32,000 bases of DNA from the NCBI RefSeq assembly GCF_000284455.1, contig NC_017039.1, positions 2,700,001 through 2,732,000 of the forward strand. Direction: 5' to 3'. A program made the translations under genes and the position numbers. The DNA is from Synechocystis sp. PCC 6803 substr. PCC-P. Lineage in GTDB: Bacteria; Cyanobacteriota; Cyanobacteriia; Cyanobacteriales; Microcystaceae. Positions 6,911 through 14,100 of this stretch are shown here, piece after piece (within the stretch, counting starts at the first letter, position 1; every line of letters begins with the position of its first letter). The notes beneath the pieces are model-generated. The model was given only the letters and a program-made list of their open reading frames with translations, had not been told where the DNA came from and ran no database searches.

Positions 6911-8212
6911 TTAAAGATCAAGGTGAGTAAAAGCTTTTGCTCCCTGGCCAGTATAGGTGGCGGCAATGTGACCATGGCCCCACAATTGGTACTTATAGGT
7001 GACCAAACCCTCCAAACCCACTGGCCCCCGGGGCGGCATTTTCTGGGTACTGATGCCCACCTCTGCGCCAAAACCATAACGGAAACCATCGGCAAAGCGG
7101 GTACTGCAATTGTGGTAAACCCCGGCGGAGTCCACCCGCTGACAAAACTGCTCTGCGGCGGTTAAATCTTCGCTAATAATGCCATCGGTGTGCTTAGAAC
7201 CGTACTGGTTAATATGGTCGATCGCCGCTTCGAGGGAATCAACAATTTTGATGGAGAGGATTAGATCACTATACTCGGTGCACCAATCTGCTTCGGTGGC
7301 GGGTTCACAGTCAATTAATTTTTGAGTTCCACTATCTCCCCGCAAACTAACCCCTTTTTCCCCCAATGCCTGGGCCAAGGGTGGTAAAAATTCAGCGGCG
7401 ATCGCCTGGTGGACTAAAAGAGTTTCAATGGCATTGCAGGCGGCGGGATATTGGGTTTTGGCATCCACTGTGATGGGGATAGCCTTACTAAGATCAGCTT
7501 GAGCATCCAGATAAAGATGACAAATACCATCGGCGTGGCCCAACACAGGAATTTGGGTGTTTTGTTGAATGTATTGGACAAATTCGTTGGAACCCCGGGG
7601 AATAATCAAATCCACATACTGGTTCAGACCCAATAATTCCCGAATTTCCTCCCTGGTGGTGAGTAGGTTGATCGCTTCAGGACTCACAACGGTTTTCGCC
7701 AAGGCCGTTTGAATCACTTCAGTCAAAACTTGACAGGAGCGGGTAGCCTCTCGACCCCCTTTGAGAATTACGGCGTTGCCGGATTTGATCGCCAAACTAC
7801 TAATTTGGATTAGGGCCTCCGGACGCGCTTCAAAAATCACCCCCAAAACCCCTAGGGGACAACCAACCCGCTTTAACACTAAACCCTCGTCCAATTGGCG
7901 GTGGAGGGTAACTTGGCCCAAGGGATCGGGTAAATGCTCCACATCCTTCACCCCCGCAATGGTGCTTTTGAGCTTACTTTCCCCCAACAACAGACGGTTA
8001 TAAAGGGGTTTGGCAATGCCCATGGCTTCCGCAGCCGCACAATCTTCCTGGTTGGCAGCCAAAATTTCTGGCATAGCGGCCGTTAAACCATCAGCTATGG
8101 CGGCGATCGCCTGATTACGTTCGGCGGTGTTTAAACTACCCAGATGGAGGGCCGCTTGACGAGCATTGTGGGCCAGGGTGTGGAGGGCAGAAAGGCTTGG
8201 GGAAATAACCAT
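6911..8212 (-). CDS. proA: Gamma-glutamyl phosphate reductase
   Basis: 433-aa ORF of the aldehyde dehydrogenase superfamily with ProA-typical blocks ([70 protein letters not shown]). Confidence 0.95.
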
Positions 8213-8337: not shown

Positions 8338-8970
8338 TTAATGATCCAGAGCCGATCGCCCTTGACGACCCAAACGAAAAATCAGGAAAGAGAGGAAATA
8401 CATCACATAGGCCACTAGGCCCACAATGCCCAAAAAGCCGAGAAATCCGGTGTTGGAATTAGCGTGGAACCAAGCCTTGTAATGGAGAGGGGGCTGGAGC
8501 CAAACCTGACAGAAACTTTCTGCCCCACCAATGCCATTCAGCCCACAGGAGAGGAAAGGAATATTTACCAAGATGGCAAAGCAGGAAAAAATAGTGATGG
8601 CCCATCGCCAAGTGGTGGTGGCCAATTTCAAAGGAGAAGGGGGTAAATCTTTGATTTCATCATTGAGGTCCACCCAAAACCATAAACTAATGGGAATTAG
8701 ACAACGGGCGGCAAAACCAGTGAAGAAAGCCAATGACCAGCCGGGAATCAGGAGATAAACCGTTACCACCAACAGGCTGGCCACGCGCCAATAGATAATT
8801 AGCAAGCGATTGATGGCATCCACCCGCTTAAATGCCGACCAAATGATCAGCACCAAGGGGATAAACACAGAAACGATGACCGCTAAGCGATAGTCCAACC
8901 AGATTAACCGCAACCAAATACCGTCTACTTCCATAACACCATCGAAAAATTTGACAAAACCAAGGGGCAA
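8338..8970 (-). CDS. Multi-pass membrane protein, conserved-hypothetical type
   Basis: 210-aa ORF with about 5-6 hydrophobic helices and native GC. The track start at 8970 is TTG; an in-frame ATG at 8934 (MEVDGIW) is an alternative. Confidence 0.6.
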   Translation of the reverse strand: MPLGFVKFFDGVMEVDGIWLRLIWLDYRLAVIVSVFIPLVLIIWSAFKRVDAINRLLIIYWRVASLLVVTVYLLIPGWSLAFFTGFAARCLIPISLWFWVDLNDEIKDLPPSPLKLATTTWRWAITIFSCFAILVNIPFLSCGLNGIGGAESFCQVWLQPPLHYKAWFHANSNTGFLGFLGIVGLVAYVMYFLSFLIFRLGRQGRSALDH

Positions 8971-9069
8971 TGCACACCAAAATGTGAACCCCCAGCTTTG
9001 CTAGGCTACCAAATTTTCAGACCAGTTTACGGGATTAACCGTCAGCGTCATTCAGTGGAAACAAAAAGA

Positions 9070-9249
9070 CTACTTTGCGTCTAGACTTTTAAGGATTTTT
9101 TGAGCTAAAAACTCCTTGATTTCTGTATGTCGAGGCACAGCTTCAACAATTCCAGTTGTAGGATTAATCCAAAGAGAGTGGGAGCCACCTTCTTGCTTTA
9201 AACAACAACCAGCCTGCCGCAACTTTTTCTCTAAATCCTTACGCTTCAT
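9070..9249 (-). CDS. hicA: HicA-family mRNA interferase toxin (59 aa)
   Basis: Below the track's 60-aa cut-off. My translation is MKRKDLEKKLRQAGCCLKQEGGSHSLWINPTTGIVEAVPRHTEIKEFLAQKILKSLDAK. The GSH...VPRH.EI...IL core is the HicA signature. Its ATG overlaps the hicB stop as ATGA (9246-9249). Confidence 0.8.
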   Translation of the reverse strand: MKRKDLEKKLRQAGCCLKQEGGSHSLWINPTTGIVEAVPRHTEIKEFLAQKILKSLDAK

Positions 9250-9464
9250 GGAATTAGAATCGTTTCTTCAATGGCCTCTTCAGGTAAACCTCGACGAATA
9301 TCTTCCAGGCGATCTTCAACAATAAGTTGTATGGCACTTTTCAAGCTAGCTTTTGCTTCTGCTATAGTGTCACCTTGACCATTAGCTCCAGGAATTTCTG
9401 GACAAATAGCCCAATATCCCCCATCCTCAGCGGCTTCAATAATTGCAGTTAGTTCAGCTTTCAT
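9246..9464 (-). CDS. hicB: HicB/UPF0150-family antitoxin, short form (72 aa)
   Basis: MKAELTAIIEAAEDGGYWAICPEIPGANGQGDTIAEAKASLKSAI matches the HicB N-terminal fold motif (GGY.A..PE.PG....G.T.EEA). The GGGAGA Shine-Dalgarno sequence ends 8 nt upstream of the ATG. Translationally coupled to hicA. Confidence 0.8.
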   Translation of the reverse strand: MKAELTAIIEAAEDGGYWAICPEIPGANGQGDTIAEAKASLKSAIQLIVEDRLEDIRRGLPEEAIEETILIP

Positions 9465-9501
9465 GATGAGTTTCTCCCAATGGTAAATAGCAGTAAATGT
9501 C

Positions 9502-9529
9502 AGTTTATTTACGTTAACATTGCTTGCAA
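9502..9529 (-). promoter_or_regulatory. Sigma70-like promoter candidate for hicBA (TTGCAA, 16 nt spacer, TAAACT)
   Basis: On the minus strand the -35 TTGCAA is at 9529-9524 and the -10 TAAACT at 9507-9502. This would give a leader of about 30 nt to the hicB ATG at 9464. Sequence inspection only. Confidence 0.3.
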
Positions 9530-9566
9530 AATTGCTGGATATGCTATTCGAAGATAAAAAGTATTT

Positions 9567-11132
9567 TTAACATGAATTATTCTTTCCCTTTACCCATTTA
9601 GCTAGAATTTTTTCAAAGGGCCTGATCGAAGTACATAGATTGTTTATAAAATACTTTTTTTCATCTTGTGGTAAACCAGAAATGGCGTATAAATAAGCAT
9701 TTTTTTGCCAAGGATCCATCAATTGATAATTTTCTTTGTAATCTCGAAGCCAATCAAAAGCATGATTTTGTTTCGCAGCTAGTAGAATTTCTCTTCTTAC
9801 AAATGGGTCACTCGATGCGTATTGTTCAGTTAATTTTGAGAAATGATTAATATATTTGTTTTTAGTGAAAAGGCTTAAAAGAGAAAGTTTTAGATATTCA
9901 TTGCTCTTAATTTCATCAGAATTTAAGAGAGATAATAATCTTTCTCCAATCTGAATCCATTTATTTTTTTCAATAGATTGTACAGAAGTAAAATAAGCGC
10001 ATATGTTGGCAAGACAAGGACTTAAGTTCTCAATTTCTTGTAGTGAAATTGAAATATCTACGGCACCAGGATGACCTATTTGCGTTAATCTCCGATAAAA
10101 CCATCGAAGACGAATATAATCTACTTGGTCTTTGTCAAGATAATCTTTAATGATCTTCGTAATTATTTCATCAGAAATTGACAACCAATCCTCATCACTA
10201 ATTTTATTGAAAGAAATTGCAATATAAGGATTACCATCAGAATATTTTCTTATGATTCTTAGTATCTTATCTTCATCCGAGGAAATTGGTCTATCTTCAA
10301 TCATAGATGGACACAGCTTTTTAAATTCTTCAGAATTATATGTTTGGGTTTTATGCCTTTGAAGTGTTAATCTTTGTTGCTTATCTAATGTTGATGCAAT
10401 AGAATATGCTAACTGTTTAGCATGATTTCTGGATTTACAGAAAACTATGATATCATCAGCAAAACGAATGAAATTAATTCCCTTAGAAACCAAACAATTA
10501 TCAATAGGGATCATGGTACTTTCTGCGATTAAATGTAAAGCATGAGGCCCAACAGGTATTCCACGAGATACTTTTGCCGTTGTTGATTCTATTAAACTAA
10601 TTATCCATTTTTTTGCTTGATTTGGAAAACCTGATGCAAATAATTGATTTTCTACAGTGTGATGATAAATTTGATTGTAAAAGTCAGCAATATCACAGTA
10701 TAAAACTGTATCAAAGCCATTACTCAGCGCGTATGCACTCTGCCAGAATTGGTTCCAAGAGATTTGATTATCATAAAAACCTGTTTGAAAATCTGGCTTA
10801 AATCTATAACTAAATACTTTTTCTTTTGTTAATCTACGATTTTCAATCTCCTGACCATATTGATAGATTAATGCAGAAAGAATAATTGAATCTTGTGGAT
10901 CTAATTGTGTAGCTTGGCGGTATGCCAATTCATCTTTAGGGACAATAAAACGACGGCAAGAACCAGGTTTAAAACTATCTAAATCTAAGTTTTTATTCTC
11001 AACCTGTTCTACAAATTCATCTGCCATATTATAAATGGCATCTATTTCCAAGACTTTCGGAAAAAAGTCACCATCGGAATGATGATATAAAAAGTTAACT
11101 GCCCAATGAAGTGACTCGCTTGTTAAAGTCAT
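9567..11132 (-). CDS. Stand-alone reverse transcriptase (RNA-directed DNA polymerase) with a helical C-terminal domain; UG/Abi (defence-associated RT) like, class unassigned
   Basis: RT motifs 1-2: RRFIVPKDELAYRQATQLDPQDSIILSALI. Motif A: LYCDIADFYNQIYHH. Motif B: SRGIPVGPHALHLIAE. Motif C: IRFADDIIVF, with FADD encoded at 10452-10463. About 250 aa of helix-rich C-terminus follow. No endonuclease or maturase signature seen. Sampled lines are about 28-30% GC against about 52% in the flanks. Confidence 0.85.
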   Translation of the reverse strand: MTLTSESLHWAVNFLYHHSDGDFFPKVLEIDAIYNMADEFVEQVENKNLDLDSFKPGSCRRFIVPKDELAYRQATQLDPQDSIILSALIYQYGQEIENRRLTKEKVFSYRFKPDFQTGFYDNQISWNQFWQSAYALSNGFDTVLYCDIADFYNQIYHHTVENQLFASGFPNQAKKWIISLIESTTAKVSRGIPVGPHALHLIAESTMIPIDNCLVSKGINFIRFADDIIVFCKSRNHAKQLAYSIASTLDKQQRLTLQRHKTQTYNSEEFKKLCPSMIEDRPISSDEDKILRIIRKYSDGNPYIAISFNKISDEDWLSISDEIITKIIKDYLDKDQVDYIRLRWFYRRLTQIGHPGAVDISISLQEIENLSPCLANICAYFTSVQSIEKNKWIQIGERLLSLLNSDEIKSNEYLKLSLLSLFTKNKYINHFSKLTEQYASSDPFVRREILLAAKQNHAFDWLRDYKENYQLMDPWQKNAYLYAISGLPQDEKKYFINNLCTSIRPFEKILAKWVKGKNNSC

Positions 11133-11197
11133 TTTTTTGTTCTGTTGTATGGGACAAGCTAGGCTTAATGGGTCTAGAGCGTCCCAATCATGACAAA

Positions 11198-14100
11198 CTA
11201 GCCTAGATAATCCTGCAATGCTTTAACGTCTAAAGGGTGATCCTGCAGACTGCGGAGGGCGGCAACGGTGGCTTTTCCTCCGGCGATCGTGGTGATGATG
11301 GGCAATTTATAATCCAACGCAGCCCGGCGAATGGTGCGGCCATCCAACTGGGACTCCTCGCCGCTGGGGGTGTTGATAATAAATTGGATTTGGCCGTTTT
11401 TGATCCAGTCAATGACGTGGGGTCGCCCTTCGTGGAGTTTTAACACCACTTCCACCCCTTCAATGCCATGTTCCCGCAGAACTTTTTGGGTACCAGAGGT
11501 AGCGACAACCTTAAAGCCCAGGTCAATTAATTCCCGCACTACGGGCACCGCCGCCTCTTTGGTGCGATCGCTCATGGACACAAATACCGTTCCGGTGGTG
11601 GCTAAAATTACCCCCGCTCCCAACTCTGCCTTCGCAAAGGCTTTACCAAAGTCGCTGTCAATGCCCATGACTTCCCCAGTGGAACGCATTTCTGGCCCCA
11701 GCAAAGTATCCGCCCCGGGGAATTTACTGAAGGGAAGAACGGCTTCTTTAACGGCCACGTGTTGGGGAATAAATTCCTCCGTTACCCCTAATTCTTCTAG
11801 GGTTTTGCCGGACATGACCAGGGAAGCAATTTTGGCCAAAGGACGGCCGGTGGCTTTACTGACATAGGGAACGGTGCGGGAAGCCCGGGGGTTAGCTTCG
11901 AGGATATAAACCTGGTCCCCCTGCACTGCGTACTGAATATTCATTAGACCCACCACGTTTAAGGCCCGGGCCAATTGTTCTGTCCATTGGCGGATGGTGG
12001 TCAGAACGTTATCGGAAAGGCTGGTGTAGGGAATGGAACAGGCGGAGTCCCCGGAATGGATGCCCGCTTCTTCGATGTGTTCCATGATGCTACCGATGAC
12101 CACTTTGCCGGTGCTATCGGTGAGGGAGTCCACGTCCACTTCAATGGCATTTTCCAGAAACTTGTCAATTAAAATGGGGTGGTCCGGCTCAATTTGCACC
12201 GCATAGGTCATGTACCGTTCTAATTCTTCATCGGAATAGACGATTTCCATGGCTCTTCCCCCTAGCACGTAGGAAGGGCGCACCACAACGGGATAACTAA
12301 TGCGGTTGGCCACCACTCTGGACTCTTCATAATCCCTGGCAATGCCGTTGGGAGGTTGGCTAATTTCCAGCTCGTGGAGAATCTTCTCAAATCGTTCCCG
12401 GTCTTCAGCGGTGTCGATGGAGTCAGGGGAAGTGCCCCAAATTTTAGTCTGCACGGGGCAATCGGGACTGTTTAAATACTTTTGCAGGGGAACTGCCAGT
12501 TTCAAAGGCGTTTGACCACCAAATTGGATAATGATGCCCACTGGGTTTTCCGCTTCAATAATATTTAAAACGTCTTCTTTCGTTAACGGCTCAAAATAGA
12601 GGCGATCGCTCGTGTCGTAGTCGGTGGAAACGGTTTCCGGGTTGGAGTTGACCATGATGGTTTCATAGCCCGCATCACTGAGGGAAAAGGCGGCATGGCA
12701 ACAGCAGTAATCAAATTCAATGCCTTGGCCAATGCGGTTGGGCCCCCCCCCCAGGATCATCACTTTGGGTTTGTCCGATGGCAATACTTCGCACTCTTCC
12801 GGTTCGTAGGTGGAGTAGTAGTAGGGGGTGAAGGCTTCAAATTCCGCCGCACAGGTGTCCACCACTTTATACACGGGGGTAATGCCCAAGGATTTGCGGT
12901 AGGCCCGCACTTCGTCTTCCGTGGTTTTGGTGGCAAAGGCTATCTGGCGATCGCCAAAGCCCTGTTGTTTGATGTAGCGCAGATCTGCGGCCGTGAGGTC
13001 TTTTAAACTCCGTTGTTTCATATATTTTTCTGTTTTGACCAAATCCTCTAGTTTGTCTAAAAACCAAGGATCGATCGCCGTCAACTCATGAATTTCTTCC
13101 ACTGTCATGCCCAAATTAAACGCATGGTGCAAAGAAAAGACCCGCTCTGGGTTGGGAGTCCGCAACTGGGAACGCAAATGGGACAGCGTCGGCAAAGTCT
13201 CATGGCGATCGCAACCGAAGCCGAACCGTCCTGTTTCCAAGGAACGTAACGCCTTTTGGAAAGATTCTTGGAAAGTACGACCAATGGCCATGGCTTCCCC
13301 GACGGATTTCATTTGGGTGTTTAAAATTGGCTCGGCCCCAGGGAATTTTTCAAAGGCAAAGCGGGGAATTTTGGTCACCACGTAATCAATGGTGGGTTCA
13401 AAGGAAGCGGGAGTCTTCTTAGTGATGTCGTTGGAAATTTCGTTGAGGGTATAGCCCACTGCTAACTTGGCCGCAAATTTGGCAATGGGGAAACCCGTGG
13501 CCTTAGAAGCCAGGGCCGAAGAACGGGAGACTCGGGGATTCATCTCGATCACAATCACATCGCCATTGGCCGGGTTAACGGAAAACTGAATGTTTGACCC
13601 CCCTGTTTCCACGCCAATTTCCCGAATAATGGCAATTGAATAGTCCCGTAGCCGTTGATATTCCTTATCGGTCAAAGTCTGGGCGGGAGCAACGGTAATG
13701 GAATCCCCAGTGTGAACCCCCATGGGGTCAAAGTTTTCAATGGAGCAGATAATGACCACGTTATCGGCCAAATCCCGCATCACTTCCAGCTCGTATTCCT
13801 TCCAGCCCAACAGGGATTTTTCCACCAGAATTTGGGACATGGGGGACTGATCCAAGCCGTATTGCACCATCTCCTCATATTCTTCTTGGTTGTAGGCAAT
13901 GCCGCCCCCCGTACCTGCCAACGTAAAAGCAGGGCGAATAATTAACGGATAGGAACCAATTTCATGGGCCACCTGCCGAGCTTCTTCGATGCTACTGGCG
14001 ATGCCCGATGGACAAACGGGAACCCCAATGCGGGCCATGGCTTCCTTGAATAATTCCCGGTCTTCCCCCATTTCGATCGCCGGCAGTTTCGCCCCAATTA

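Follow-up and report, generated by a model that had tools for sequence, protein, structure and literature searches.

The 32,000-nt stretch of Synechocystis sp. PCC 6803 DNA analyzed here (NC_017039.1, positions 2,700,001 to 2,732,000; referred to below as the window and numbered from its first nucleotide) contains sll0371, a 521-amino-acid (aa) open reading frame (ORF) that starts with ATG, lies on the minus strand and encodes a reverse transcriptase (RT). We found that sll0371 is a member of RT group UG7, which corresponds to type 8 of the defense-associated RTs (DRTs) and to Class 1 of the UG/Abi RTs, and that it represents the stand-alone variant of this group. The gene was acquired horizontally. 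By analogy with the Class 1 enzymes characterized so far, its product would probably act as an oligomer and carry out tyrosine-primed, untemplated DNA synthesis leading to defense by abortive infection. The family is catalogued and the variant was already described in 2022; we found no mention of sll0371 itself in the literature searched.

The first-pass annotation of this DNA had proposed a UG/Abi-type defense RT but had left its class unassigned. While the family call was borne out, a single profile search was sufficient to supply the class. Indeed, the PADLOC Drt8 model (PDLC03783) matched aa 3 to 517 of the protein over model positions 2 to 492 of 493, with an E value of 8.8e-161 and a score of 534.6 bits. 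The runner-up was RT_UG21 (133.5 bits), followed by UG20 and UG23, and the Drt6, Drt5, and Drt4 models reached 62 to 69 bits. None of the NCBIfam models scored above its own cutoff. In Pfam, RVT_1 was the sole domain detected (aa 112 to 271; E value of 1e-16; 61.6 bits against a cutoff of 29.6), in agreement with the earlier statement that the protein carries no maturase, endonuclease, nitrilase, primase, or Cas domain. An exact-sequence look-up returned BAA10402.1 (sll0371) and other entries as identical proteins, and 924 database homologues were found at an E value of 1e-5 or lower. The number of homologues, together with the invariant columns and the ratio of nonsynonymous to synonymous substitution rates (dN/dS) described below, places this 1.5-kb ORF, in DNA with a G+C content of 31%, far beyond chance.

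Based on its motifs, the fingers-palm core of sll0371 is catalytically intact. We aligned 91 diverse representatives of the UG7/DRT8 family and found that the catalytic aspartates D147 (motif A), D226, and D227 (motif C) are present in all of them, as are R223 of motif C and the glycines G191 and G195 of motif B, with P193 reaching 98%. The steric-gate position in motif A (Y152) is occupied by Y or F in every sequence. The full-length best profile match and the intact aspartates of motifs A and C together assign sll0371 to UG7. Conservation is not restricted to the core. The N-terminal extension, which includes the peptide LHWAVNFLYHHSDGDFFPKVLE (aa 8 to 29), harbors D20, P25, and E29, each conserved in at least 93% of the sequences. 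Similarly, the helical C-terminal domain, which includes the peptide DPFVRREILLAAKQNHAFDWL (aa 442 to 462), is conserved to the same degree as the RT core, with invariant columns extending up to W513. All peptides quoted in the first-pass annotation, as well as the position given there for the ORF and for the D226/D227 codons, were correct.

Several databases call relatives of sll0371 "retron-type reverse transcriptase," and the general likeness to RVT_1 would also fit an RT from a group II intron, a retron, or a diversity-generating retroelement (DGR), or else a decayed pseudogene. The NCBIfam scores are, however, all far under the cutoffs: 53 bits against 300 for the group II intron model TIGR04416 and 38 bits against 235 for the retron St85 model. 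No maturase or endonuclease domain, no intron RNA, and no msr/msd RNA match was found at the locus. In addition, no direct repeat longer than 25 nt was present in the surrounding 2.4 kb (window 8900 to 11300), and hence there is no template/variable repeat pair as expected for a DGR. Finally, the ORF is whole, every invariant residue is kept, and the gene is under purifying selection. These identities, which had been named beforehand as refuting the defense-type assignment, therefore have a negligible probability.

We then modeled sll0371 with AlphaFold2 using an alignment of 38 sequences. The model, which had a mean predicted local distance difference test (pLDDT) of 88.2 and a predicted template modeling score of 0.89, consists of two N-terminal helices (aa 5 to 18 and 30 to 46), a fingers/palm core, and a helical domain that runs unbroken between about aa 285 and aa 516. 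This alpha-repeat domain takes the position expected for the thumb. The helical C-terminal repeat domain anticipated from the sequence was thus recovered, since about 235 C-terminal residues are predicted to be all-helical at high confidence. A Foldseek search against the PDB placed Class 1 enzymes on top, with about 500 aligned columns. The best match was the DRT6 hexamer 9wy8 (template modeling [TM] score of 0.60 to 0.63), with the UG15/DRT4 structures 9l9s and 9vdo at TM 0.51 to 0.53 and AbiA, Abi-P2, and AbiK at TM 0.41 to 0.50. DRT9 matched more weakly (TM 0.35 to 0.39), and the structures of group II intron and retron RTs aligned to the RT core only. At the sequence level, PDB matches were restricted to the palm (E values of 3e-12 to 1e-10 for DRT6 and DRT4), and no solved DRT8 structure was among them. 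The model and its structural matches show the fusion of a C-terminal alpha-repeat domain to the RT that characterizes Class 1.

This is in good agreement with the published classification. Mestre et al. (2022, NAR 50:6084; PMC9226505) named UG12, UG10, UG7, and UG28 as DRT types 6 to 9 and put UG7 in Class 1, whose RTs carry a fused alpha-helical repeat domain. In the same study, UG7 (385 members in total) was split into two variants in line with the phylogeny, one with a PD-(D/E)XK nuclease-like gene referred to as "cluster 17" (150/385) and one without any associated gene (165/385). The DRT8 system validated there, which is active against T5, belongs to the nuclease-linked variant, and the active sites of the RT and the nuclease were both needed (PMC9226505).

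To assign sll0371 to one of the two variants, we searched for partner genes. A genome scan with one genome per species yielded 51 loci with relatives at 37 to 73% identity, spanning cyanobacteria, Firmicutes, many Proteobacteria, Planctomycetota, Dehalococcoidia, and Acidobacteriota as well as archaea (Methanoperedens and ANME-1); PCC 6803 itself was not among the genomes returned by this GTDB scan. When the ORFs within 5 kb were clustered for 53 loci, no family other than the RT was common to three or more distinct loci. Likewise, no conserved partner gene emerged when the 150 ORFs closest to the RTs were scanned with Pfam and PADLOC. The commonest Pfam family was HTH_3 (4/150), and the defense genes found were scattered (IetA twice, HerA, Old, AbiEi, and methyltransferases). 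The contigs of distant representatives were either too short or again carried stand-alone RT loci, and we recovered the nuclease-linked variant from IMG/VR. In these loci, an RT of 542 to 550 aa (Drt8, 552 bits) overlaps by 4 nt with an ORF of 246 to 261 aa that matches the PADLOC RTasPDDEXK model (E value of 5.5e-69), and the pair adjoins a phage-type integrase. The RTs of these loci are only about 25% identical to sll0371. When the RT-associated PD-(D/E)XK nuclease was used as a tblastn query, neither the window nor the 51 loci, covered up to 10 kb from the RT, gave a match below an E value of 2. Because this nuclease was not found, and no RTasPDDEXK gene adjoins sll0371, we classify sll0371 as stand-alone UG7 and not as a two-gene DRT8.

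Both variants occur in Escherichia coli, the nuclease-linked type in 105 of 5,426 complete genomes versus 4 of 5,426 for the stand-alone clade. The E. coli homologue WP_032256885.1 is 59% identical to sll0371; its surroundings are a tRNA-Sec integrase island, in which a WYL-domain protein is adjacent and a retron St85 follows after about 8 kb. Searches of phage GenBank records gave no match, and plasmids gave six matches only, three of them on Rhizobium megaplasmids.

The main rival explanation is that the RT needs an effector encoded elsewhere, for example, a trans-acting PD-(D/E)XK nuclease. In this case, the DNA made by the RT would do no more than sense infection or switch on this effector, as in the two-gene DRT8. 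The dependence of the validated DRT8 on both active sites would favor this, as would the occurrence of family members with fused PNP, CHAT, or endonuclease/exonuclease/phosphatase domains, in which the RT and alpha-repeat core acts as a sensor or activator module. However, no homologue of the nuclease was found in the ranges searched, a gene moving alone between phyla would seldom meet the same unlinked partner, and DRT4 and DRT6 function as single genes. We therefore consider an unlinked effector fairly unlikely.

The fusions deserve a separate description. Five wider UG7/DRT8 members (P0128, P0154, P0165, P0172, and P0237) carry C-terminal CHAT, PNP_UDP_1, or endonuclease/exonuclease/phosphatase domains, and all of them match the Drt8 profile best. 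CHAT is a caspase-like protease and PNP_UDP_1 is of the ATP-nucleosidase type. It thus appears that the RT and alpha-repeat core forms a module to which interchangeable effectors can be joined. The PNP_UDP_1 fusions agree with the PNP effector that has been reported in the place of the nuclease in some DRT8 systems. Other candidate partners were seen just downstream of distant UG7 RTs: a PADLOC PDC-M05A nucleotidyltransferase-like protein (L053, 2059 to 2664; E value of 1.5e-75), an FRG-domain/PDC-S15 protein (L080, 7693 to 8793), and a second RT gene on an Aminobacter plasmid (L058, 6791 to 8674). One locus from Planctomycetota (L038, 7216 to 12076) harbors two tandem stand-alone RT paralogues of 662 and 534 aa with a 208-aa RT-related fragment in between.

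Returning to the self-sufficient polymerase that we favor, the Class 1 enzymes studied (AbiK, Abi-P2, AbiA, DRT4, DRT6, Drt3b, and DRT7) all synthesize DNA without a nucleic acid template. AbiK, Abi-P2, AbiA, DRT4, and DRT6 produce protein-primed, covalently linked single-stranded DNA (ssDNA) (PMC12783706), and Drt3b and, according to a preprint, DRT7 produce protein-templated repeats. The protein-primed enzymes form trimers or hexamers. By analogy, sll0371 would assemble as an oligomer and make DNA without a nucleic acid template, starting on one of its own tyrosines, and the DNA would remain covalently bound to the protein. Phage infection would stabilize or unleash this protein-linked DNA, and the resulting arrest or death of the infected cell would shield the population. 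Since the clade has no dedicated effector gene, this role would fall to the DNA product, as has been suggested for DRT4 and DRT6, or else to an unlinked factor of the host.

The priming tyrosine differs among the characterized enzymes: it lies in a fingers loop in AbiK (Y44) and Abi-P2 (Y61), in the palm in DRT4 (Y125), and in the linker between the RT and alpha-repeat domains in AbiA (Y298 or Y303) (PMC12783706). In sll0371, the best candidate would be Y303, the last residue of the GNPY loop directly past the palm. No other tyrosine is as highly conserved in the family: Y303 is present in 83 of the 91 diverse representatives (91%) and sits in a 10-residue coil (aa 298 to 307; block pLDDT of 76). 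The (D/N)PY motif is also kept in the nuclease-linked UG7 RTs, and we found no mention of this motif as common to both variants in the literature searched. Y303 is thus possibly the protein-priming residue. Y120, which would correspond by position to Tyr125 of DRT4, was dropped because 46 of the 91 sequences have Tyr and 36 have Phe at this site. The coordinates of all features are collected in Table 1.

Table 1. Features of sll0371 and its surroundings in the 32-kb window
Feature	Position (nt)	Strand	Basis or remark
RT gene sll0371, 521 aa	9567..11132	-	ORF, PADLOC Drt8, match to BAA10402.1
N-terminal helical extension, aa 1-50, motif HSDGDxFPK	10983..11132	-	Alignments, model
RT motif A, YCDIADFYNQIYHH, aa 145-158	10659..10700	-	Catalytic D147 encoded at 10692-10694
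RT motif B, GIPVGPHALHLIAE, aa 191-204	10521..10562	-	Alignment
RT motif C, RFADDIIVF, aa 223-231	10440..10466	-	D226/D227 at 10452-10457
GNPY loop, aa 300-303, directly past the palm	10224..10235	-	Alignment, AlphaFold2 model
All-helical C-terminal alpha-repeat domain, aa 285-516	9585..10280	-	AlphaFold2 model, structural matches
T6 homopolymer, codons 21-23	11066..11071	-	T7 in one same-strain assembly
Gap between carB stop and RT start, 65 nt	11133..11197	-	Too short for a DRT2- or DRT9-type noncoding RNA
Gap between RT stop and HicB start, 102 nt	9465..9566	-	No Rfam match, no terminator-like site on this strand
HicB-like antitoxin, 72 aa	9246..9464	-	Pfam HicB_lk_antitox 26.1 bits, just under the cutoff of 27
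HicA toxin, 59 aa	9070..9249	-	Pfam HicA_toxin 39 bits against a cutoff of 27
Variable segment with RT, HicB, and HicA, 2,170 nt	9023..11192	.	Slot between carB and DUF3177

An alternative to protein-primed synthesis is that sll0371 copies a dedicated noncoding RNA (ncRNA), as the first-pass annotation had allowed for and as is the case for some DRTs (types 2, 3a, and 9) and for retrons. The gaps on either side of the gene measure 65 and 102 nt. A search of Rfam in a permissive E-value mode returned nothing at an E value of 1 or lower around sll0371, and a scan for promoters and terminators revealed nothing above shuffled expectation that could delimit an RNA near the gene. We also compared the 300-nt flanks of 44 loci all versus all by blastn, and similarity was found only between near-identical species pairs. 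No conserved adjacent ncRNA, the hallmark of ncRNA-dependent DRTs and retrons, was thus detected. An ncRNA conserved in structure alone is unlikely, as the sll0371 locus leaves little room for it. Furthermore, the fold is of the Class 1 alpha-repeat type, whose characterized members need no nucleic acid template, and the match to DRT9 is weaker. We therefore find copying of an ncRNA very unlikely, and this part of the first-pass annotation was not supported.

The genomic setting of sll0371 points to horizontal acquisition. Its G+C content is 31.4%, versus 48 to 51% in the surrounding carB, DUF3177, proA, and ABC ATPase genes, carB (sll0370) being the upstream neighbor. In two related Synechocystis genomes (GCA_015207985.1 and GCA_015207725.1), the flanks are 86 to 90% identical to the window and gene order is the same, and a DUF29 gene is found between carB and DUF3177; similarity stops at 11193 and resumes at 9022. 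The segment from 9023 to 11192 therefore fills a variable slot. Only short matches, of a size that often arises by chance, were found in a search for attachment-site or inverted repeats at its borders. A low G+C content is a general property of these genes: the RT lies below its flanks in 46 of 46 loci, with a mean difference of 11 points, as is typical of a mobile accessory gene. In the two sister genomes (slot at L061/L062 positions 7307 to 7948), we also noticed PemK- and MazE-type toxin-antitoxin genes a few kilobases off, which are missing at the corresponding place in the window.

Downstream of sll0371, the slot contains a hicB and a hicA gene that overlap by 4 nt and form a HicAB toxin-antitoxin pair. 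The first-pass annotation had called the RT an orphan; this holds in that there is no conserved partner, but the HicBA pair, 102 nt downstream on the same strand, had gone unmentioned. The RT and HicBA could form one unit, with the RT or its product governing HicA as the toxic effector. Indeed, they share a strand with no terminator-like site between them and lie within one 2.17-kb variable segment. The RT and HicBA genes all have a low third-position G+C (RT, 0.21; HicB, 0.19; HicA, 0.35; overall, the HicBA genes have 41 to 42% G+C), and the arrangement is retained in Synechocystis sp. B12. However, HicBA is a self-sufficient toxin-antitoxin type, and B12, which is 98.5% identical to the window here, reflects shared ancestry and not independent evidence. 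Moreover, no HicA or HicB homologue was found beside the RT in the other 51 loci. For this last reason, a functional link between the RT and HicBA is unlikely, and we regard a joint unit with HicA as the effector as quite improbable.

The comparison with B12 (L069) also revealed an uneven distribution of differences. Between 11000 and 11197, there were 13 differences in 133 nt at the 5' end of the RT gene and 10 in the 65 nt of the upstream gap, against 7 in 1,433 nt over the remainder of the gene. This suggests a short recombination tract over the RT 5' end and promoter region between PCC 6803 and B12.

Next, we analyzed the conservation of the clade to which sll0371 belongs, using the 38 sequences of the alignment (A1), which are 59 to 92% identical to sll0371. 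Their lengths hardly vary (511 to 513 aa). Invariant columns, of which there are more than 150, extend through to the end of the helical domain. dN/dS was 0.04 to 0.23 where dS was measurable, dS being saturated in distant pairs, and identity between bacteria and archaea is about 60%. This reflects an old divergence under strong purifying selection and neither recent spread nor decay. In another UG7 subclade, identity among the top matches is just 36 to 42%, and the conservation of the sll0371 clade is therefore notable.

Several points weigh against a self-sufficient, tyrosine-primed defense polymerase. The only validated DRT8 required its PD-(D/E)XK nuclease, and the nuclease-linked RT is distant from sll0371, at the identity given above. 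For PCC 6803, the partner search covered the 32-kb window, and a partner acting in trans could lie elsewhere in the genome. Within the window, sll0371 has a housekeeping neighborhood (carB, proA, an ABC ATPase gene) and not that of a defense island, and the conservation of its clade is notably high for a defense gene. Lastly, we infer the oligomeric state, priming, product, and trigger of sll0371 entirely by analogy.

Some of these points could equally indicate that sll0371 does not serve defense in this host and is instead a passenger of a selfish or addictive kind or a polymerase domesticated for housekeeping. The housekeeping neighborhood, the strong conservation between bacteria and archaea at near-constant length, and the fact that the literature contains no phage assay of the stand-alone UG7 variant are compatible with this. 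On the other hand, the low G+C content in all loci combined with a patchy taxonomy indicates an accessory, mobile gene, and the sister Synechocystis genomes have the same slot without the RT gene. In addition, some relatives are located in integrase or defense islands, and all members of the wider lineage that have been tested are antiviral. A role outside defense in PCC 6803 is thus unlikely.

For the stand-alone UG7 clade as a whole, a possible though less likely reading is that it is either a self-sufficient, effector-less defense polymerase with a universal product or target or a polymerase with a conserved nondefense function. From cyanobacteria to methanogenic archaea, the clade maintains an identity of about 60% and a constant length of some 512 aa, which could reflect a universal and not a host-specific product or target; for example, DNA primed at Tyr303 of the (D/N)PY loop could itself be a toxic or decoy molecule. 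If true, either option would set the stand-alone clade mechanistically apart from the nuclease-dependent DRT8, after which the family is named.

A few variants of the gene were observed in addition. In the homologues from Nostoc, Roseofilum, and Moorena, about 33 additional aa are inserted where the helical domain begins (A1 columns 338 to 374, after aa 337); this insertion is found neither in sll0371 nor in any remaining clade member. In four loci (L041, L048, L049, and L051), the RT frame is split or truncated, for example, into 106 and 423, 162 and 333, or 233 and 181 aa; these may be decayed copies or metagenome assembly errors.

Two further variants were seen in assemblies nearly identical to the window. 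The Logan assembly SRR13482451, from the same strain, is 99.987% identical over 15 kb but has T7 instead of T6 in the homopolymer of codons 21 to 23 (L001 position 10009), which frameshifts the full-length ORF. In this allele, the ATG at 11074 comes into frame, giving a 502-aa product without the invariant N-terminal residues. Either a sequencing error or a genuine null or slippage allele could account for the T7. The Logan assembly SRR27213186 is 100% identical over 13 kb except for 207 nt inside the RT gene (10653 to 10859; L060, 8268 to 8352), which are swapped for an inverted copy of 10709 to 10793 with junction microhomology of 6 to 7 nt (TATCAA and GAAAATC). The net loss of 135 nt is in frame, and aa 92 to 160, including the catalytic D147, are lost. 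This rearrangement, if real, would be a second independent inactivation of the gene in a laboratory lineage. We treat it with caution because three other truncated Logan forms are artefacts, P0512 and P0515 having Illumina adapter ends and P0516 a contig-end insertion error. If both alleles are real, they would mean counter-selection of an active, costly RT.

As to the significance of these data, the gain in annotation is small: the label "UG7/DRT8-family (stand-alone) RT" replaces "retron-type" or "unknown." The partner-less variant nevertheless accounts for almost half of UG7, and in reviews published in May and June 2026, DRT8 figures among the last DRT types without a mechanism. PCC 6803 is the standard genetic model for cyanobacteria, and together with the E. 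coli homologue, this provides two tractable hosts. The questions opened are whether a lone RT with an alpha-repeat domain is sufficient for immunity, which DNA is made, and whether the tyrosine of the (D/N)PY motif is the primer.

Compared with known systems, sll0371 is closest to the stand-alone UG7 RTs of Mestre et al. (2022), with which it shares the profile, the Class 1 architecture, and the lack of an associated gene; nothing structural differs, and sll0371 is distinguished by being cyanobacterial and outside a defense island. With the two-gene DRT8, it has in common the RT group, the domain layout, and the N-terminal DxDxFP and (D/N)PY motifs. However, the overlapping RTasPDDEXK gene of that system was found neither at sll0371 nor at the 51 loci, and the RTs are only about 25% identical. 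DRT6 (UG12) and DRT4 (UG15) are the best whole-chain structural matches and, like sll0371, are single genes encoding an RT with an alpha-repeat domain. Both are hexameric, tyrosine-primed, template-independent ssDNA synthases, but their PADLOC models score 69 and 62 bits on sll0371, versus 535 bits for Drt8, and the priming Tyr125 of DRT4 lies within the palm, whereas the conserved tyrosine of sll0371 follows it. AbiK, Abi-P2, and AbiA have the same Class 1 fold and a protein-primed, untemplated chemistry, and AbiA primes from a tyrosine in the linker between the RT and alpha-repeat domains, which is the region of Y303 in sll0371. They nevertheless represent separate UG/Abi groups with only remote sequence similarity, and AbiA has an extra HEPN domain. 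Finally, DRT9, DRT2, and retrons share with sll0371 the RT palm and the antiviral role of the family. Unlike sll0371, at which no such RNA was detected, these systems need a conserved adjacent ncRNA, and their structural match is weaker than that of the Class 1 enzymes.

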